NCBI GenBank assembly: GCA_964203565.1
Contig: CAXNMP010000004.1
Span: forward strand, 50,413-114,412
Direction of reading: 5' to 3'
Source of the DNA: Limnohabitans sp.
GTDB lineage: Bacteria; Pseudomonadota; Gammaproteobacteria; Burkholderiales; Burkholderiaceae_C
Length of the DNA: 64,000 nucleotides
Part shown: positions 6,088 through 43,141 of the stretch, in pieces
How positions within the stretch are numbered: position 1 is the first letter of the stretch
Layout of the letters: each line of letters opens with the position of its first letter
Made by a program: the position numbers and the translations under genes
The notes under the pieces: generated by a model
The model's input: the letters and a program-made list of their open reading frames with translations, nothing else
What the model was told of the DNA's origin: nothing
The model's database searches: none

Positions 6088-6339
6088 CGTCAACCCTCCG
6101 CCTTCATCTGTTCGAGTCCCGATGGTGTCGTCGAAGTTTTGGGGTCAAAATTCGGGGGTCAAAACCTGAAAATCTAGGTTTTCACCTTGCCAGTTGCAAT
6201 ATGCAACTCTTGGCCAATTACACGAAATATTACACGGTGGCTATTTTTACATGTAAGTCATTGATTTATATAGACTTTTGACGAGCCTGGATTTCTGTTA
6301 AAGCACAGGTTCGCAATTCAAATCCGTGAAGCGCCACCA
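6088..6339 (+). repeat. Degenerate/chimeric att-like copy: left arm, IHF site, CTGTTAA loop and a diverged tRNA-like 3' half ending CCACCA
   Basis: 6216-6301 matches 12136-12221 (ACACGAAATATTACACGGTG..TAAGTCATTGATTTATATAG..GACGAGCCTGG.TTTCTGTTAA); 6295-6339 is 45 nt to CCA, the same register as the tRNA-Asn halves. Confidence 0.8.
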
Positions 6340-10063: not shown

Positions 10064-10933
10064 TCAATAACCTGTGTTGGGTAGAGGGGCAAGCGTTGCT
10101 TGGGTACCAGACGGAATCTGACCACGTATCTCACCGCTTGTATTGGCAGCTGTGTGAACGTTGAAATAAAGACCGTTAGTAGTGAAGGCAGCAGCTTGAG
10201 CCTCAGTCAGCACTGTGCCAGCAGGAACGGCCCATTTTCCACCGCCTTGGTCTGTCAACGTAACGATTACTGAACCATTTGCACCGCTTGCACCTTGGTG
10301 AATGTGCGCAGCGGTGGCCGTTAGGTTAGTTAACTGAATGGACCCGATTAATGCACGTGTGGAAGTAACTATGGTGGCTATTCCCGTTCCTGACCCGACG
10401 GATGTAATAGGAGGGACTTCATTTGCACCAAGCAAAACAGATGAGTAAGTCACTGTTGGAATGGCAACAGACGGAATCTGACCACGTATCTCACCGCTTG
10501 TGTTGGCAGCTGTGTGAACGTTGAAATAAAGACCGTTAGTAGTGAAGGCAGCAGCTTGGGCCTCAGTCAGCACTGTGCCAGCAGGAACGGCCCATTTTCC
10601 ACCGCCTTGGTCTGTCAACGTAACGATTACTGAGCCATTTGCACCGCTTGCACCTTGGTGAATGTGCGCAGCGGTAGCCGTTAGGTTAGTTAACTGAATG
10701 GAACCGGTTAACGCACGAGTGGAGGTAAAGAGAGTTGCTGTTGCCGTACCAGATCCGATGGTTGCAACGGGGGAGACTTCGTTTACACCAGACAAAACCG
10801 ATGTGTAAGTCACAGATGGTTCACTGGAGCCACCACCCCCCCCCCCGCAAGCGGAAATGAACGTAATGACAATGCATAACAAAAAGAGATTTAGGCAATG
10901 AGTTTGAAAGGAAAGTGTTTTGAAGCTTGGCAT
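10064..10933 (-). CDS. Lipoprotein with two tandem CHRD domains
   Basis: Lipobox FISAC-GGGGGG; twice L.G.NEV.P...G.G...AAHIHQG..G.NG...LYFNVHTAANTSGEIRGQI. Confidence 0.9.
   Translation of the reverse strand: MPSFKTLSFQTHCLNLFLLCIVITFISACGGGGGGSSEPSVTYTSVLSGVNEVSPVATIGSGTATATLFTSTRALTGSIQLTNLTATAAHIHQGASGANGSVIVTLTDQGGGKWAVPAGTVLTEAQAAAFTTNGLYFNVHTAANTSGEIRGQIPSVAIPTVTYSSVLLGANEVPPITSVGSGTGIATIVTSTRALIGSIQLTNLTATAAHIHQGASGANGSVIVTLTDQGGGKWAVPAGTVLTEAQAAAFTTNGLYFNVHTAANTSGEIRGQIPSGTQATLAPLPNTGY
10108..10700. repeat. Intragenic direct duplication, period 360 bp
   Basis: 10108-10340 is nearly identical to 10468-10700. Confidence 0.9.
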
Positions 10934-11075: not shown

Positions 11076-11210
11076 GAGTCGAACCTCTGCCCTCCTCTGC
11101 TAGAGCACCAGCGAGGGAGTCGAACAAGCGGGATTTCAAAGTTCAGTGTCCCTTCATGGAGTCGAACTTTGAGCTTTTTCGGTTCGAGTCCCGGTTATGT
11201 CGTCGAATGT
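11076..11210 (+). repeat. Phased 41-42 bp units (GAGTCGAAC-N14/15-GTTCGAGTCC-like); arm-only copy
   Basis: GAGTCGAAC at 11076, 11117 and 11159; degenerate TCGTCGAAT at 11200. Confidence 0.8.
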
Positions 11211-11239
11211 CAGAAGCATAATTTCAGGTCATTCGACAC

Positions 11240-11268
11240 TTGACAAAACGTATCAAAGATGGTACATT
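11240..11268 (+). promoter_or_regulatory. Sigma70 promoter of the TA operon
   Basis: TTGACA-17 nt-TACATT, 6 nt upstream of the ATG at 11275. Confidence 0.75.
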
Positions 11269-11274
11269 TTGGAT

Positions 11275-11616
11275 ATGAAACCGATATTGAACGCAAGTTT
11301 CTTCAGATCAGAAAGTGGCAATGAGCCTGTACGCGAATGGCTTAAAGCTTTGTCTGCTACAGAGCGAAGAATCATGGGTGAAGATATCAAAACAGTTCAA
11401 TTTGGTTGGCCACTGGGCATGCCTTTGGTTAGGCATCTAGAAGGTGGCATTTGGGAGATCAGGATCAAACTTGAAAACCGAATTGCTCGAATACTCTTTT
11501 GCCTCGAGGGCTCCACCATGGTGATTCTTCATGGTTTTATCAAGAAGCAACAAGCCACGCCCAAACAAGATTTGGATCTGGCCAAAGAACGTCTCAAGAT
11601 CTTGAAAAGGAAATGA
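11275..11616 (+). CDS. Type II TA toxin, RelE/ParE superfamily (Gp49/DUF891-like)
   Basis: FFRSESGNEPVREWL..IKTVQFGWPLGMPLVRHL..GIWEIR..ARILF..LHGFIKK.Q.TP..DL.LA. Confidence 0.9.
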   Translation: MKPILNASFFRSESGNEPVREWLKALSATERRIMGEDIKTVQFGWPLGMPLVRHLEGGIWEIRIKLENRIARILFCLEGSTMVILHGFIKKQQATPKQDLDLAKERLKILKRK

Positions 11617-11617
11617 C

Positions 11618-11905
11618 ATGTCAAAGAAAAACATTGGATCGAGTTTCGATGATTTTTTGCAAGAGGAATCCCTGCTTGAGTCCAGCACTGCTGTTGCCTT
11701 AAAAAGAGTTATTGCTTGGCAGATAGACCAAGAGATGAAAGCTCAGAAATTGACCAAAACTGAGCTCGCCAAACGCATGCACACAAGCCGTGCTGCCTTG
11801 AATAGATTGCTTGATGAAAACGATGCAAGCTTAACCCTAACCACTCTCGCCAGTGCCGCTGCGGCGTTAGGCAAGAAGGTGAACTTGCAACTAGCAGCGG
11901 CTTAA
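11618..11905 (+). CDS. XRE-family HTH antitoxin
   Basis: MSKKNIGSSFDDFLQEE..TKTELAKRMHTSRAALNRLLD; directly downstream of the toxin. Confidence 0.88.
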   Translation: MSKKNIGSSFDDFLQEESLLESSTAVALKRVIAWQIDQEMKAQKLTKTELAKRMHTSRAALNRLLDENDASLTLTTLASAAAALGKKVNLQLAAA

Positions 11906-11946: not shown

Positions 11947-12415
11947 GTTCGAGCACCAGCGAGGGAGTCGAACAAAAGTGATTTCAAAGTTTAGTGTCCC
12001 GTCATGGAGTAGAACTTTTAGGAAATTTAGAACAAGCCCCAAGCCTAGCGTCTAACTTCTCGCGCGTAAAATGACTTCGCTGAGTGCAAATTTGCTTGTT
12101 TTGGCTGGAAAGTTACATAATGTAACTTTTGGGGTTATTACACGAAATATTACACGGTGACTATTTTTTCGCATAAGTCATTGATTTATATAGGTTTTTG
12201 ACGAGCCTGGCTTTCTGTTAATCCGTAGGTCCCTGGTTCGAGCCCAGGTCGAGGAGCCACCTAAAAAAGCATCGTCAAAAGCGATGTTTTTTCCTTTTAT
12301 ACGCAACAACTTGTCGCGTTGAGGGCCTCTGGGTGACTTTTTGCCCTCAAATTTCATCGAGTTATTGCACGTATATTACACGGTGGATGGTTCGAGTCAA
12401 GAGGCAGAATCAGTC
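11947..12415 (+). repeat. Full attP-like site, copy 1
   Basis: About 370 bp (12048-12415) is a close direct repeat of 21368-21722; contains the palindrome at 12109-12129, TATTACACG pairs at 12136-12156 and 12363-12382, and an IHF consensus at 12174-12186. Confidence 0.88.
12215..12259 (+). repeat. 3' half of tRNA-Asn(GTT) (att core; not a complete tRNA)
   Basis: CTGTTAA-TCCGT-AGGTC-CCTGG-TTCGAGC-CCAGG-TCGAGGA-G-CCA; no D-arm or 5' acceptor strand upstream; terminator-like hairpin follows. Confidence 0.9.
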
Positions 12416-14525: not shown

Positions 14526-14792
14526 TCCTTCCGATCAATTTGGTCTGTTCCGCTACACCTCTGCTTTTATTAATTATTTAAGTTTCAAAATGAGTGATTG
14601 GTTGTCTCGTTTGACCTGATTTGAAAGGTTCAATAAAAATTGAATGTCAAGAGATCAACCAATCAATAGTCATCAAGCATAAAGAATGCCAAGTTGGGCG
14701 TGCGGAGATTGACAAGGTTAAAAATACGGTCAAGGTCATTAAGTGTTCACATAACACCTATAAAACATTGTTATCAACGTAGGAGGCTGAAC

Positions 14793-15128
14793 ATGGACAA
14801 TTCGGTTTCATCTATTGAACTGCTTGCTCGTCTCTTTAACCAATCATTACGCAAGCGGGGTTTTACCAGAGCCATACATAGGGCGATGAACCCTAGTGAA
14901 TGCACCGGAATCATGTATCAAGATTTCGGGGTTGTCGGTCTGGTCGTTGCAGGTGAATTGGCGCTTGAATTTTATGAATCAAGTCAAAGCCACGGCACTG
15001 GAGAAGAGTTCACACTTCCTGCAAATATCTATTTCCAAGCTACTGCCGGTGATGATGGGGCACAACTGCTAATTGCAAAGAAGCGAGCACACTTGGCAAG
15101 TACAACAGAATCGCTTGAAGAGATCTGA
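14793..15128 (+). CDS. Hypothetical protein, possible cupin-like fold
   Basis: AGGAGG RBS before the ATG at 14793; LVVAGELAL..GEEFTLPAN beta pattern. Confidence 0.55.
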   Translation: MDNSVSSIELLARLFNQSLRKRGFTRAIHRAMNPSECTGIMYQDFGVVGLVVAGELALEFYESSQSHGTGEEFTLPANIYFQATAGDDGAQLLIAKKRAHLASTTESLEEI

Positions 15129-15155
15129 TCAAACATTAACCAAAGGAGCCTGACC

Positions 15156-15443
15156 ATGGAAAACCAAGCCACTGAAAAATTCTCTGAATTAGTTGACGAG
15201 TACCAAGAAGAATTTGAAACACCAGCAGAATTGCATCGAATGGCAGCCTATCACTTGATGCAGGCCTCAAAGCAGCACGAGTTAGCCGCAGAGGCTTTTG
15301 AGAACGATGATCAAGTCACCTGCGATCTTCATTCCCTTCGTGCATACAAGCATGAACTCAATGGAAGGCAGTATTCTGAAATGGCCATGATGGATGCTGA
15401 CGATATTGATGACATAGAAGACGTTGAAGCTACACAGACATAG
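15156..15443 (+). CDS. Acidic His-containing helical hypothetical protein
   Basis: AAGGAG RBS; ELHRMAAYHL..KQHELAAEA. Confidence 0.6.
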   Translation: MENQATEKFSELVDEYQEEFETPAELHRMAAYHLMQASKQHELAAEAFENDDQVTCDLHSLRAYKHELNGRQYSEMAMMDADDIDDIEDVEATQT

Positions 15444-15466
15444 GCATCAAAAGATCTCTAAATTCA

Positions 15467-15760
15467 ATGAAGCGAGCCAGCAAATACGATAATCTTTTGA
15501 ATCCAATCAACCAAAAGAAAATTGACGATCTGTGCCAATCAATCAGTGAAAACTGTGACAGCCCCTTAGGATGGGAGCAATTAACCAAGCTAAGTGGCTT
15601 GACTCACAAAGAATTGATTGCTCTTTTTCAACTGTACAAACAAACAACGCCTATGGCGTTCATCAAACACGCTAGGCTTCTTAGAAAAATTGACTCACCG
15701 GTATTTCCTCAAAATCAACTTTTTCCAAAATCTATAAAAAATACAGATACGACAGGATGA
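15467..15760 (+). CDS. Short AraC-like HTH protein (single HTH)
   Basis: EQLTKLSGLTHKELIALFQ..TTPMAFIKHARL resembles AraC HTH1. Confidence 0.6.
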   Translation: MKRASKYDNLLNPINQKKIDDLCQSISENCDSPLGWEQLTKLSGLTHKELIALFQLYKQTTPMAFIKHARLLRKIDSPVFPQNQLFPKSIKNTDTTG

Positions 15761-15775
15761 ACATGATCACAACAA

Positions 15776-16864
15776 ATGAATGTGTTGTTGAGAGTTTTTT
15801 CTAAAACAAGACACACCCCTGCCATAAACAAATCTTTTAATGTGAAGTGTTTTTTAAAAAATACTCCCATGTCAGTTGAGTCAGTCTGTTCAGAATTCCA
15901 CCTAATCAATGATGGTGGTATCAATCGCAAAGTAGCCTATTCACGATTAGGTGAACTAAATGCAAAACATATTTTTTTATGCTTGCCGGGATTGTTAGAG
16001 ACGCGTGAGAGCTTTTATCCTTTGCTTGATATGGTTGAGCAATTTGATGATTGTTGCTGGATAAGTATAGACTACTGTGGAAGAGGAAATTCGGATCCAC
16101 TATCTTCTACTGCAAACTACTCATTCTCAAAATATCTTGCTGATACAGAAGATTTGATTGAGTCATTGATTCTGCCGCAGCAAGTGGATGCAAGTCGCAA
16201 ACTCCATCTGATTGGAACAAGTATGGGCGGCATTTTGGCAATGCATCTTGTGAATCGCTTAAGCCATAAGGTCGACAGCGTGATGCTTAACGATATTGGC
16301 TTTTATCTCCACTGGTCAGCTTTGATGACTCTTTACCAGAATATCAATCAATCAGACAACCAAATCGATAAATTAACAGTAGATGTGCGTGCCTTGGAAG
16401 CAGTACAAAGCAGCTCACACTTTGATTTGCCCTATGAATTTGATTTACTTGGAATGCGGTTTCACACTCTACTTCAAAATTTCACCGGCCGGGTTGTTTT
16501 GCTGCACAACGCTGAGAGCCCGATATGTTCATTGAACATAGCGAATCAATCCAAAGCAAAATTTCCAACCTTGAAGGTTTGGACCTTAGATAAGTCAGGC
16601 CACCCAGCCAAATGGGAGGAAAGTATGGTCGTAAAACTCTCTCAATTGATGAGGCTCAAGGCAAAGTCAATAGAAAATACAGATAGTCAAGTTTCGCTAC
16701 AAATACCTGAGATTATTCAATCAACAAGCGCCTTCGGTACGAGCTTCATTGAATCATTTCTTAAAACCAGTCAAGCCTACTTTGAATCAACTATTGAAGA
16801 TCCGAGACTTTGGTTCAACAAATTGGTAAAACGGATCAAGTTTTGGAAAGGATCTTATTCTTGA
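15776..16864 (+). CDS. Alpha/beta fold hydrolase
   Basis: CLPGL, DYCGRGNS, nucleophile motif IGTSMGG, LNDIG. Confidence 0.8.
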   Translation: MNVLLRVFSKTRHTPAINKSFNVKCFLKNTPMSVESVCSEFHLINDGGINRKVAYSRLGELNAKHIFLCLPGLLETRESFYPLLDMVEQFDDCCWISIDYCGRGNSDPLSSTANYSFSKYLADTEDLIESLILPQQVDASRKLHLIGTSMGGILAMHLVNRLSHKVDSVMLNDIGFYLHWSALMTLYQNINQSDNQIDKLTVDVRALEAVQSSSHFDLPYEFDLLGMRFHTLLQNFTGRVVLLHNAESPICSLNIANQSKAKFPTLKVWTLDKSGHPAKWEESMVVKLSQLMRLKAKSIENTDSQVSLQIPEIIQSTSAFGTSFIESFLKTSQAYFESTIEDPRLWFNKLVKRIKFWKGSYS

Positions 16865-18506: not shown

Positions 18507-18844
18507 AGCATTTCTCTAAGAATAAAGATGTGAGAATGTTACACGCTTCTTTACCAAGAAATTATGACATATTGATGTCATATTCTACCGTGATGTGAAC
18601 TTAGTTGGTGAGATGCATACAAATTCAAATTTTGACATCGAATTGAAGTTACAAGTGCCCAATGCATCAATACAGGTTTGAAAAAGGCCTGCACTCGCAG
18701 GAAGGGGTGCTTAGTGACTATTTTTTAGAAAACCATCATGAATTGCATTAAATAGTATGCAATATGAAGTTTTATTAGTCCTAAATAAACACACCGTTTC
18801 GGGGTTCCGAGTTCGAGAACCCTCATGTCAGCTGTCCGGGTATG

Positions 18845-18985
18845 GAGTCGAACTTTTGAGAAATTTAGTTCCAGCCCCAAGCCTGAGCGTCTAAGTTGTC
18901 CAATGCACGGTGACAGCACTGATTGCAAAATCTACGAAAGTGCTGGAAGGATTGCAATTTACAATTTTTGTCTATTTACATGAAA
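18845..18985 (+). repeat. Diverged left-arm copy of the att-like element
   Basis: GGAGTCGAACTTTTGAGAAATTTAG..AGCCCCAAGCCT.AGCGTCTAA..TGCAAA..GCTGGAA aligns with 12006-12156. Confidence 0.75.
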
Positions 18986-19123
18986 TTTCTTCACAGTAGT
19001 CTTAGGTCTATGGGTTAAAGTAAAAGAACTGATTCAAATCGTTGACCAAGAAAAAAATCTGATTTATTCGAATACAGTCTTGGGATCAGTTGCTTGTCTT
19101 GTTATAAATTGACAGTTGTCTGA

Positions 19124-19705: not shown

Positions 19706-19825
19706 AAGTTCGAGCCCCAAGCCAACCGTGTAACTTTTCAAGTGCAAAATGACGCGGCCAAGTGCAAAATCTACGAAAGTACTGAAAAAATTGTAATTTA
19801 CAATTTTCGGTCATATACACGGCAG
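19706..19825 (+). repeat. Diverged left-arm copy of the att-like element
   Basis: GTTCGAGCCCCAAGCC..GTGTAACTT..AAAATGAC..AGTGCAAAATCTACGAAAGT..palindrome 19787-19807..TACACG. Confidence 0.75.
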
Positions 19826-19950
19826 TTCATTAGCAAAAAATTATGCACGAAAATTAACAGCCCTGAAACAAAAAACTAGCAGAATTCATTAAATTTTATT
19901 TACTGGTCAAGAAGATTTCGATAGGCAGTTTTTAAAATTATGGAGTTTAA

Positions 19951-21261: not shown

Positions 21262-21326
21262 TTACAGTAAGTCACCAATAGAGATGTCAATTTGATTTGT
21301 TGAAATCTGATTCCACCGCCTTTCAA

Positions 21327-21722
21327 GGAGTCGAACTTTCGCCCGTACTGGTTCGAGCCCTAAGCCTAGCGTCTAACTTTCACGCGTAAAATGACCGCGC
21401 TGAACGCAAATTTGCGTGTTTTGGCTGGAAAGTTACATAATGTAACTTTTGGGTTAATACACGAAATATTACACGTTTAATAAAAACGCCTATAAGTCAT
21501 TGATTTATAAGGGTTTTTGACGAGCCTGTTTTCCTGTTAATCCGTAGGTCCCTGGTTCGAGCCCAGGTCGCGGAGCCACCTAAAAAAGCATCGTCAAATG
21601 CGATGCTTTTTCCTTTTATACGCAACTACTTGTCGCGTTGAGGGCCTCTGGGTGACTTTTTGCCCTCAAATTTCATCGAGTTATTGCACGTATATTACAC
21701 GGTGGATGGCATCAGTCAAGAG
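21327..21722 (+). repeat. Full attP-like site, copy 2
   Basis: Direct repeat of copy 1; palindrome at 21429-21449, IHF consensus at 21493-21505. Confidence 0.88.
21534..21578 (+). repeat. 3' half of tRNA-Asn(GTT) (att core)
   Basis: Identical to 12215-12259 except one acceptor-stem base (TCGCGGAG vs TCGAGGAG). Confidence 0.9.
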
Positions 21723-21766
21723 GTTTAGCTTTTTGTGTTGAGAAAGTAAGGCGGTGTAGACAAGCT

Positions 21767-28117: not shown

Positions 28118-28226
28118 AGCCAATGCACCTCTGTATTTAAATCTTTGACCGAATAAATAAAGAGCGTAATTAATCATGACCACTTGGCCTACATCTTTTT
28201 TCGCCGACTACAGCTAAACAACCAAC

Positions 28227-28285
28227 ATTTCAAAGTTCGGTGTCTGAGCAAGGAGTCGAACTTTGAGCTTTTTCAGTTCGAGTCC
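28227..28285 (+). repeat. Arm fragment of the att-like element
   Basis: ATTTCAAAGTTC.GTGTC..GGAGTCGAACTTTGAGCTTTTTC.GTTCGAGTCC nearly matches 11133-11191. Confidence 0.8.
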
Positions 28286-28437
28286 GGATCCAGATCAGTG
28301 AAGCTACGCACCAAGCCTTGATTCATCCGTTTTCAGTTGAACACAGAGGCGTCATTGAAGTCAAAGGTAAAGGAGAGATGAGTACTTGGTTCTTGAACAA
28401 TAGCGGGATCGCTCCCCCACTCTGCGCAGCATGAAAG

Positions 28438-32334: not shown

Positions 32335-32709
32335 TTAGTTATCAAGCACTGCCCTGGCCCTGCGTTGCAGCCAAGGGCGCAAGGGCAAGAATGCCTTGTA
32401 TGCAAGCTCAAGCATGGATGTCACTGGCCAAAAGCTGGCAATATGTCCTGCATATTTCCATGCACCAGGCAGCAGTGTCCACATCAATGCGAAACCTGCC
32501 GCGCCGCTGAACATGCGGCCATCGGTTGTCCTCACATGAAAACGTCTAGGCAAGTCTTGCTGGCAGTAGCCGTCGGGACAACTGGCATCATTGAGTGAAA
32601 CATCCACCCATGCCAACTTGCGAGAAATATCAAGCCTTTGGTAGTAGGCAATATCTCGTCTGCACATCGGGCAAGAACCATCAAAGAATACCTCCAGTGA
32701 GGTGCTCAT
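32335..32709 (-). CDS. DCC family thiol-disulfide oxidoreductase (DUF393)
   Basis: FFDGSCPMCRRDI, RFHV. Confidence 0.85.
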   Translation of the reverse strand: MSTSLEVFFDGSCPMCRRDIAYYQRLDISRKLAWVDVSLNDASCPDGYCQQDLPRRFHVRTTDGRMFSGAAGFALMWTLLPGAWKYAGHIASFWPVTSMLELAYKAFLPLRPWLQRRARAVLDN

Positions 32710-41920: not shown

Positions 41921-43141
41921 TCAGTGGTTTGAGTTGTCTTTGGCTAAACGCAAGCCGCTGAACTGCCAGCGTACATGGGCAGGAAAAAAATTACGGTAGG
42001 TCTGGCGACTGTGTTGTGCAGGCGTTGCAAGACTGCCTCCACGCAGCACTTGCTGACCCACCATGAATTTGCCGTTGTACTCGCGTACCGCACCATTGGC
42101 CGGCACAAACCCTGGGTAAGGCTCATAGGCCGAGCGGGTCCATTGCCACACCTGTGAATACAAGTCGTGCATGGCTTTGTGAGTACTTGCAATTTCCCAC
42201 TCAAATTCTGTGGGTAGACGGGCACCACACCATTGTGCAAATGCTGATGCTTCATAAAAACTCAGGTTAGCCACAGGCGCTTGTGGGTTGAGTTCTTGCA
42301 AGCCGTTCAAGCCAAACACCTGCCACTGGTCTGAGTGAGACCGAGGATCGTCAGGGGCCAACCAATACAGTGGGCATTGCCAACCGTTTTGCAGAACTTG
42401 AGAGCGGCCTTCGGAGAGCCAGAGGTCTGCGTTGTCATAGCCGCCGTCTTTGATAAACGACAGGTACTCGCCGCAGGTCACCAACCGATTGGCGATCTGA
42501 AACCTTTGAACAAACCGCTGATGTTTCGGTGTTTCGTTGTCGAATGAAAAACCTGCTTGATCAACTGATCTGCCAATCTCAGACAAGCTTTCATCAAACG
42601 AAAGCCATTGCATCTCTGCGCAAGAGGTTGGCGGGTATATGAAAGAAGTGTTGTAGGCAGGTAGCAAGGGATGACAAGACAGCAAATGCAAGGCATCGGT
42701 CAGAAATAACTCTTGGTGTTGTTGCTCGTGGTTCATGCCAAGCTCTATCAAGGCCAATAATTCTTCGTTGAGAGAATCTGTGTTCATCAACAGTTGTTGC
42801 ATAGCGGCATCCACGTGCTGTCGAAATGCAAGCACCTGTTGCAACGACGGCCGTGTCAGCAATCCGCGCTGCGGACGCGGATGCCGTGGTCCCAAGGCTT
42901 CGTAATACGAGTTGAAAAGATAAGCAAAAGAAGCGTCAAACACTTGGTAACTGGGCAAAAAAGGTAGCAGCACCAAATTTTCAAAAAACCAGCTGGTATG
43001 CGCCAAATGCCATTTAGTGGGACTGGTGTCTGGCATTGACTGCACACACTGATCCTCGGCGCTTAAAGGCGCAGCTAGGTTCAAAGAGTGTTGGCGCAGA
43101 AATGTGTAGCGGTCTGGTAGCGAGTAATGCATGTACGTCAA
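41921..43141 (-). CDS. egtB: Ergothioneine biosynthesis sulfoxide synthase
   Basis: QSMPD.SP.KWHLAHT.WFFE, FNSYY, HEQQHQEL..TD, FGE-sulfatase domain, NGKFM, YRNFF..RWQFSG.RLA. Confidence 0.93.
   Translation of the reverse strand: MTYMHYSLPDRYTFLRQHSLNLAAPLSAEDQCVQSMPDTSPTKWHLAHTSWFFENLVLLPFLPSYQVFDASFAYLFNSYYEALGPRHPRPQRGLLTRPSLQQVLAFRQHVDAAMQQLLMNTDSLNEELLALIELGMNHEQQHQELFLTDALHLLSCHPLLPAYNTSFIYPPTSCAEMQWLSFDESLSEIGRSVDQAGFSFDNETPKHQRFVQRFQIANRLVTCGEYLSFIKDGGYDNADLWLSEGRSQVLQNGWQCPLYWLAPDDPRSHSDQWQVFGLNGLQELNPQAPVANLSFYEASAFAQWCGARLPTEFEWEIASTHKAMHDLYSQVWQWTRSAYEPYPGFVPANGAVREYNGKFMVGQQVLRGGSLATPAQHSRQTYRNFFPAHVRWQFSGLRLAKDNSNH

Follow-up and report, generated by a model that had tools for sequence, protein, structure and literature searches.

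What does it mean that a bacterial chromosome carries attachment (att) sites with arms on both sides of the core? The question is raised by positions 11947-12415 of a 64,000-nt stretch of Limnohabitans sp. DNA (hereafter, the window), where one half of a tRNA-Asn gene lies between two sets of paired repeats, and by a copy of this layout at 21319-21723. The window corresponds to C4:50413-114412 in a genome of 2.74 Mb and 26 contigs. We consider it likely that both sites are internal attP-like joints, of the form P-core-P', within a long tandem array at the Limnohabitans tRNA-Asn.

The anatomy of the site is compiled in Table 1. A first-pass annotation of this DNA had described a 45-nt tRNA-Asn half (12215-12259) that begins exactly at the anticodon loop CTGTTAA, paired repeats in the same orientation to its left and right, the reverse complement of the IHF consensus in the form of TAAGTCATTGATT, and a recurrence of the whole layout at 21.4-21.7 kb. 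All of these features were found where it had placed them, and alignment with the tRNA-Asn of the genome gave 45/45 identical positions for the half at 12.2 kb and 44/45 for that at 21.5 kb. ARAGORN called no tRNA at 12215-12259, in agreement with the presence of a half only. The two joints shared 94% identity across 232 nt. As in lambda-type attP, the core is part of the target tRNA gene and the partner switches inside CTGTTAA; repeats that at the sequence level look like arm-type sites, and that are unlike the core, stand on both sides of it. The IHF-like site also appeared to be kept in position and sequence across the left arms, including divergent ones (≥80% in 39 copies). Matches to the IHF consensus are common by chance (13 in the window versus 3.6 expected), so the match alone is weak evidence.

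The repeats themselves were strongly clustered. The 21-nt pattern of the left pair had three matches in the window, compared to 0.00 expected from shuffles. Over the 2.74 Mb of the genome, TATTACACG was seen 21 times, with approximately 17 expected from base composition, and 19 of these 21 copies were located inside the ~135-kb array (C4:13-72 kb and C5), where 0.8 would be expected, in a single orientation relative to the array. Strict pairs numbered eight genome-wide, of which seven belonged to att-like sites; the annotation had held that pairs common away from att cores would speak against it, and such pairs are not common.

The two arms were found with other partners, in three forms. In the P-core-B' form (L071, L074, L076, L083, L084 and L068), the left arm leads into the tRNA-Asn 3' half; what comes next is plain flank, which has a terminator of its own and lacks a right pair. 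These forms in the relatives are true attR sites; in G033:C86, two internal joints and then an attR lie within 8 kb. The terminator motif of this flank was sought in the Limnohabitans sp. genome and was absent. Some of the attR flanks match inside integrase-bearing backbones, so those flanks may themselves be mobile. The B-core-P' form consists of a full tRNA-Asn, a right pair (P'-a) and an integrase at most of the 59 loci of the integrase family described below; with the right-arm module of the window, which we call P'-b, it occurs as a full tRNA-Asn followed by P'-b in genome G111 (L096), an attL-like arrangement. The P-core-P' form is present in the window, at C4:48716, in genomes G077, G012 and G099, and in one metagenome contig. 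Moreover, P-core-P' sites with an integrase immediately downstream were seen at no fewer than nine loci (L048, L051, L052, L059, L061, L064, L069, L073 and L085). In every case, the identity between partners ended exactly at CTGTTAA. The anatomy, the conservation, the combinations of partners and the breakpoint in the core are direct observations. As an internal junction would require, the left arm is found elsewhere as attR and the right arm elsewhere as attL. Because of these partners and of the break at CTGTTAA, we read the window sites as P-core-P' joints.

Table 1. Coordinates of att-like features in the window (positions are those of the 64,000-nt stretch).
Feature	Position	Strand	Remarks
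Core, putative crossover region CTGTTAA = tRNA-Asn anticodon loop	12215-12221	+	only stretch common to all partners; left/right combinations switch exactly here
tRNA-Asn(GTT) 3' half, anticodon loop to CCA	12215-12259	+	45/45 identical to C5 tRNA-Asn gene; without 5' half
Left arm-type pair TATTACACG-AAA-TATTACACG	12136-12156	+	columns ≥80% conserved over 39 copies
IHF-consensus-like site TAAGTCATTGATT, then A/T-rich stretch	12174-12186	+	fits YAANNNNTTGATW, reverse complement of IHF consensus
Distal left (P) arm: GGAGT(C/A)GAAC ... GTTCGAGCCCC-type unit, AAGCCTAGCGTCTAAC block, TAAAATGAC block	11947-12108	+	repeat families D4-D9
Palindrome AAGTTACATAATGTAACTT, immediately left of arm pair	12109-12129	+	dyad maintained by compensatory changes
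Core-proximal conserved block GACGAGCCTGGCTTT, candidate core-type integrase site	12200-12214	+	≥80% conserved in 39 copies; role putative
Terminator-like hairpin CATCG ... CGATG and T run, 3' of tRNA half	12263-12292	+	in every copy of right-arm module P'-b
Right arm (P'-b)	12310-12404	+	hairpin GAGGGC..GCCCTC 12321-12348; pair 12363-12382; conserved tail GTGGATGG..TCAAGAGG
Right arm-type pair TATTGCACG-TA-TATTACACG	12363-12382	+	same orientation as left pair
Gp49-like toxin (11197-11616) and HTH antitoxin (11618-11905)	11197-11905	+	Pfam PF05973; HTH_37/HTH_3; embedded in distal left arm
Duplicate of distal left-arm units (GAGTCGAAC ... GTTCGAGTCC), left of toxin-antitoxin pair	11076-11210	+	direct repeat of 11951-12021, 90%
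Second two-armed joint	21319-21723	+	left arm; pair 21455-21475; IHF-like 21493-21505; core 21534-21540; tRNA half 21534-21578 (44/45); right pair 21682-21701
Third left arm with core	6088-6339	+	left arm and core 6088-6301; pair 6216-6236; IHF-like 6254-6266; core 6295-6301; tRNA-Met-like 3' half 6302-6339
Decayed left arm without core: distal unit, palindrome variant, degenerate pair	18833-18994	+	alignment; repeat families D4-D6, D8
Decayed left arm without core	19706-19833	+	alignment; repeat families D5, D8
Fragment, distal left-arm unit alone	28197-28292	+	repeat families D4, D6, D7; alignment

The left arm could be aligned over ~230 nt in 39 copies from this genome and its relatives among many freshwater Burkholderiales. 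The conserved blocks are a distal unit GGAGTCGAAC...GGTTCGAGCCCC, AAGCCTAGCGTCTAAC, the palindrome, the pair, TAAGTCATTGATTTATA, GACGAGCCTGGCTTT and CTGTTAA. The pattern from left pair to core was present in 24 of 120 other genus genomes, compared to none for the reversed control. The stem of the palindrome had at least four variants among the 39 copies, for example GTTGCA..TGCAAC, CTGTAA..TTACAG and TTGTAA..TTACAA. Such a compensated dyad points to a hairpin, or else to a dimer site with drifting specificity. In the window, the same palindrome is found at 12109-12129, 21429-21449 and 6192-6212.

Of 138 other genus genomes, 13 had the right-arm module P'-b, each in a single copy, and the Limnohabitans sp. 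genome had four copies, three of them in the array. Its left neighbour was the left arm and core in G077, G012 and G099, a full tRNA-Asn in G111, and other partners joined at the core in G010 and G037. The DNA past P'-b differed almost everywhere, and similarity stopped ~22 nt after the pair. In consequence, the module acts like an element arm at the left end of variable DNA.

The genome contains two full tRNA-Asn genes, on contigs C5 and C3. An integrase gene lies immediately downstream of each, with a right pair between the tRNA and the integrase start. On C5, the pair is AATTACACG-GT-TATTACACG and is followed by an intact tyrosine integrase of 461 aa; on C3, GTTACACG-GTG-GTTACACG is followed by a paralogue that is 50% identical. 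The array comprises at least 11 att-like sites (left-arm or core) in the same orientation across ~135 kb of C5 and C4. Sites with left arm and core are located at 41976, 48716, 56707, 62627 and 71946 of C4, and at 32400, 22729, 18637, 8187 and 2579 on the minus strand of C5. The tRNA half with the P'-b right arm is present at C4:48716, 62627 and 71946, whereas several C5 sites have a second, shorter right arm, P'-c, which consists of a diverged tRNA-like stretch and then a pair. The integrase-bearing backbones on C5 and C4 are 86-94% identical over ~12 kb, so sibling elements do exist. The annotation had suggested that two-armed sites inside the chromosome are junctions left by tandem integration of sibling elements, and this interpretation gains support from the P-core-B', B-core-P' and P-core-P' forms, the CTGTTAA breakpoint and these backbones.

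We must also note a site of mixed type at C4:13300-14980, with its tRNA-Asn half at C4:13428. Its left pair, GTTACACG-TTTG-GTTACACG, has the motif of the paralogue, and past the core and the tRNA half comes a C5-type right pair. The integrase past this joint has two frameshifts and 94% amino-acid identity to the C5 copy. By its repeats, the C4:13428 site is a hybrid joint of two element families.

The C5 integrase (C5:71514-72899, 461 aa) is evidently a divergent tyrosine recombinase. It matched PF00589 with 29.3 bits and the PHROG integrase with 4e-28, and comparison by sequence to NCBIfam and the PDB yielded nothing useful. In 26 homologues, the residues that we assign by reading to the catalytic R, H-x-x-R and Y appeared invariant. 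The AlphaFold (AF2) model had a mean predicted local distance difference test (pLDDT) score of 73 and a predicted template modelling (pTM) score of 0.51, with four strands and a helix at the N-terminus at pLDDT 83-91. In the model, this N-terminal domain would precede the core-binding and catalytic domains. The closest fold matches were XerH, full-length lambda Int and the Tn1549 integrase. The model fits a heterobivalent integrase with putative arm binding.

Members of this integrase family were found at 59 loci in Limnohabitans, Polynucleobacter, Oxalobacteraceae and other freshwater Burkholderiales, including records of isolates such as strains 2KL-17 and Rim11. Nearly all loci that reach the tRNA have the same order, with tRNA-Asn, a terminator, the pair AATTACACG-GT-TATTACACG ~62 nt past the tRNA-Asn, and then the integrase start. 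Distant integrase clades carry other pairs, namely AATTGCACA-TA-TATTGCACA and AATAACACA-GT-TATAACACA, and the paralogue carries GTTACACG; the arm motif varies with the integrase clade. As for IHF, the genome encodes IHF-alpha and a near-threshold IHF-beta. An extra IHF-alpha-like gene (C5:66944-67222; L001:10815-11165) scored 116 bits to TIGR00987, just below the cut-off, and sits within the integrase-bearing element, ~4.5 kb from the integrase.

We propose that a family of lambda-type tyrosine integrases would target the 7-nt anticodon loop CTGTTAA, its members here being the intact C5 copy, the frameshifted C4 sibling and the 50% paralogue at the second tRNA-Asn (C3). Each circular module would have two arms. 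The left one, of at least ~230 nt, would comprise the distal units, the palindrome, a WATTACACG pair 3 nt apart, the IHF-like bend site and the core-proximal block; the right arm would comprise the tRNA 3' half, the terminator, the hairpin and an arm-type pair 2 nt apart. Upon integration into an occupied att site, the left arm of the upstream resident would come to adjoin the right arm of the incoming module, and the result would be a two-armed joint. In the window, the left arm would be derived from a module that ends in a toxin-antitoxin (TA) pair, and the right arm from the next module, which has no integrase. Integrase-less modules could move only with an integrase supplied from elsewhere in the array. 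The integrase would bind the pairs and IHF the consensus site, and the joints may still be competent for recombination.

Several results weigh against reading the window sites as joints of a mobile array. Neither an integrase nor a remnant of one was found at 6.3-12.1 kb, at 12.4-21.4 kb or beyond 21.7 kb, and tblastn with nine integrases of the family of the 461-aa enzyme gave zero remnants in the window modules. The 12.4-21.4 kb cassette was not found as a unit in 120 genus genomes, where only sub-blocks of it occurred. To the right of the 21.5-kb joint, the far end of the module lacks an intact left arm within the window and shows only the fragment at 28.2 kb. The 26 contigs differ in G+C content, and the linkage of the integrase (C5) to the window (C4) is assumed; C4, C5 and most small contigs have 48-50% G+C, compared to 53-56% in C1-C3, and the window ranges over 40-57% throughout. 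These values may mean that C4 consists largely of flexible DNA, or else that the bin is mixed. In the 14 copies with searchable downstream DNA, P'-b had no integrase after it, so this module was never seen as the start of an autonomous element, and elements that start with P'-b apparently have no integrase of their own. Finally, the distal half of P'-b (hairpin and pair) also occurs by itself, at a locus without a tRNA and with shared synteny across three genomes (C3:337982, G038 and G103), and the P'-b pair may have another role or be a relic.

The last two results would also suit a rival explanation, in which each site is an ordinary attR (P-core-B') and the right module with TATTGCACG-TA-TATTACACG is the native or relic flank of tRNA-Asn, its likeness to an arm motif being left from an old element. 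The same holds for G111 (L096), where P'-b follows a full tRNA-Asn without an integrase, and for the rightmost tRNA half (21.5 kb), which leads into P'-b while the genome has no other candidate for the native flank. A native flank, however, cannot occur three times with three continuations, and the DNA past the module differs in nearly all genomes and among the three copies of this genome. Moreover, the flank that recurs at the true attR sites of the relatives is another one and carries its own terminator, and the P'-b pair agrees in motif, orientation and 2-nt spacing with the pairs between tRNA-Asn and integrase. A synteny search with the DNA to the right of 21.7 kb found neither a conserved neighbourhood in close relatives nor an end of the island; the former also argues against a native flank. 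We therefore regard the attR explanation as unlikely.

Copying of one old junction together with neighbouring DNA, by segmental duplication or homologous recombination rather than by repeated site-specific integration, would explain why the 2 kb ending in the 21.5-kb joint (C4:70173-72138) recur at 93.7% identity in C4:46937-48907, ending in the C4:48716 joint, with 1.8 kb of cargo left of the core included. Direct-repeat arrays are also prone to unequal crossing-over. Against this, the similarity does not reach past the right arm's outer edge, the DNA beyond it differs, the 12.2-kb copy shares with the other two the att region only and not the cargo, and the same arms have many partners in dozens of genomes and metagenome contigs, with breaks at the 7-nt core. 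Duplication as the source of the joints thus seems very improbable. We give hardly any credence to the notion that these are not recombination sites at all, but an intergenic regulatory or structural family (terminator-operator modules or tRNA-derived small-RNA genes) that was spread otherwise. The strict link to the tRNA-Asn anticodon-loop breakpoint and to an adjacent tyrosine integrase at 59 loci, the single orientation of the pairs across the array, the variation of the arm motif with the integrase clade, and the existence of attL-like, attR-like and attP-like combinations all disagree with it, even though the left arm has the palindrome with compensatory changes and T-arm-like hairpins, and the right arm has terminator-like hairpins. 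We also list in its favour that neither arm matches a known RNA family; the Rfam scan of the window returned tRNA-Val only. Internal joints of a tandem array remain, on balance, the reading that we prefer.

The TA pair to the left of the 12.2-kb joint (Table 1) lies between copies of the distal left-arm units, and the order of units, TA pair and units recurs in metagenome contigs L104, L105, L108 and L109. The identical sequence of the antitoxin (95 aa, encoded at 11618-11902) is indexed in 1170 blocks of a public assembly collection, of which the contexts were read at eight places. At most of these eight, the TA pair is located between copies of the distal-arm units and is followed by the palindrome, the pair, the IHF-like site and the core, with different genes on both sides. 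The TA pair is thus part of the left arm of many different modules. On the right of the metagenome TA-arm sites, we observed the plain attR flank, P'-b, another pair type, or unrelated DNA straight after CTGTTAA.

The cargo that lies right of the 21.5-kb joint recurs in contig L108 at 97.6% identity, with the same right-arm boundary and another left neighbour. At L108:9865-10020, compared to window 21455-21723, the second repeat of the left arm is joined straight to the tail after the second repeat of the right arm. The IHF-like site, the core, the tRNA half and the hairpin are missing from this fusion. It looks like the product expected of a deletion between directly repeated arm sites, which would weld two modules together. 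Such a deletion could explain how the arm copies at 18.9 and 19.8 kb came to lack a core. Contig L111 (1.7 kb) is identical to the region of the second joint. In L110:7016-8776, the DNA past a left arm and core encodes a ParD/ParE pair and another tyrosine integrase, of 342 aa, so a second integrase type may use the same arrays.

The third left arm with a core, at 6.2 kb, has no right pair. Over 36 nt, its right side (6295-6339) matches the 3' part of tRNA-Met(CAT) at C2:304550-304585 with 89% identity. With its Asn-type left arm and loop and its tRNA-Met-like half, the site may record an event at a secondary site, or may be a joint with a family of elements that target tRNA-Met.

The cargo between the window sites includes DUF1501/DUF1800, CHRD, Gp49/HTH toxin-antitoxin, hydrolase, ParA-like, MarC, BLUF and Bax1-I genes. 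The 12.4-21.4 kb module is bounded by two complete sites and holds cargo genes only. Neither conjugation or mobilisation genes nor remnants of transfer genes were seen in the scanned parts. For the small open reading frames 3' of the joint, PHROGs and Pfam gave nothing, and an exact-protein look-up with the first gene past the 21.5-kb joint returned zero further contexts. A 1.9-kb block at 14734-16674, which holds three small open reading frames and the first part of an alpha/beta hydrolase gene, recurs at C3:491602-493542 with 99% identity and is 95% identical in another genus genome; it appears to have moved or been duplicated recently inside its module. At 10103-10762, a 360-nt tandem duplication with 92% identity within the CHRD-domain gene corresponds to its two CHRD domains.

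It is also possible, and we put it forward tentatively, that the array functions as a platform for gene cassettes, comparable in function to an integron but based on a tRNA integrase of the lambda type. A single nearby integrase would capture, excise and reshuffle integrase-less cassettes, each with a complete two-armed att. The TA pairs in the left arm would hold the stack, and core deletion between arm repeats would fix cassettes permanently. Such a platform might be a main route by which abundant freshwater Burkholderiales (Limnohabitans, Polynucleobacter and Oxalobacteraceae) exchange flexible genes.

Limnohabitans and Polynucleobacter are among the most abundant lake bacteria, and their flexible-gene exchange is poorly described. 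Our results suggest that one tRNA-Asn att system organises much of the flexible DNA; about one in five of the sampled genus genomes has its arms. Should the integrase-less modules move, they would offer a natural tool for stacking cassettes at a single tRNA site. With its well-delimited arms and core and its candidate protein-binding sites, the system lends itself to direct tests. The context of a cassette stack in abundant lake bacteria is, in our opinion, a more interesting aspect than the joint itself. A search of one literature library found no paper that describes this integrase/att family in Limnohabitans or Polynucleobacter.

In attP of the lambda type, a heterobivalent integrase binds arm-type and core-type sites, and IHF bends the DNA. 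The Limnohabitans sites share with it the core in the tRNA anticodon loop, arm motifs on two sides, an IHF-consensus-like site between pair and core and, according to the model, an extra N-terminal integrase domain; they differ in that the integrase is very divergent (29 bits to Pfam) and the binding assignments are inferred. The likeness to integrons is functional only, and consists of same-orientation, mostly promoter-poor small modules with unrelated functions beside one integrase and of TA pairs in the array. We rejected membership in the integrons, because the sites are ~470-nt double-strand two-armed att with half a tRNA, and not attC hairpins. The integrase, moreover, sits here at a tRNA gene.

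In tandem arrays of SGI1 and SXT, copies integrate one after another at the same site, a complete attP remains between them, and excision can use attL, attR or any internal attP (PMC2297512). Our array resembles these in the internal attP-like joints between neighbouring members. Theirs, however, are short-lived copies of one integrase-bearing element, whereas here the members differ in cargo, mostly lack an integrase and extend over at least 11 sites, ~135 kb and two contigs. In the ICESt1/ICESt3 family, integrase-less cis-mobilizable elements (CIMEs) that keep their att sites form tandems with integrase-bearing relatives at the target gene's 3' end (PMC5704250). The modules that flank the window joints are without an integrase and thus resemble CIMEs, and as att-flanked units with no integration or transfer genes, of which the 12.4-21.4 kb module is the clearest instance, they would match the CIME definition (PMC5704250). 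[quoted passage not shown]

Islands formed by repeated integration at tRNA genes are known as tycheposons in Prochlorococcus, with partial tRNAs and degraded elements between the cargo modules (bioRxiv 10.1101/2020.12.28.424599), and as additive flexible islands in Methylophilaceae (PMC10872708). Our comparison with them covered island architecture, and the shared features are repeated integration at a tRNA and partial tRNAs that separate modules in streamlined planktonic hosts. The host lineage and the target tRNA are different here, a two-armed att is kept at the joints, and the left arm contains a TA pair. Islander lists 2083 islands with anticodon-centred crossover (class A), and 125 tandems among 3919 tRNA islands, four of them with at least three members (PMC4383910). 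A tandem in the Islander sense has an integrase and a tRNA fragment for each member; in our array, an integrase was present in two members only, C5 and C4:13.4 kb. Internal attP in tandem arrays (SGI1, SXT), ICE/CIME accretion and tycheposons are thus already known, and what is unusual here is the length of the array, the predominance of integrase-less modules with complete arms, the three conserved right-arm types and the TA pair in the left arm.

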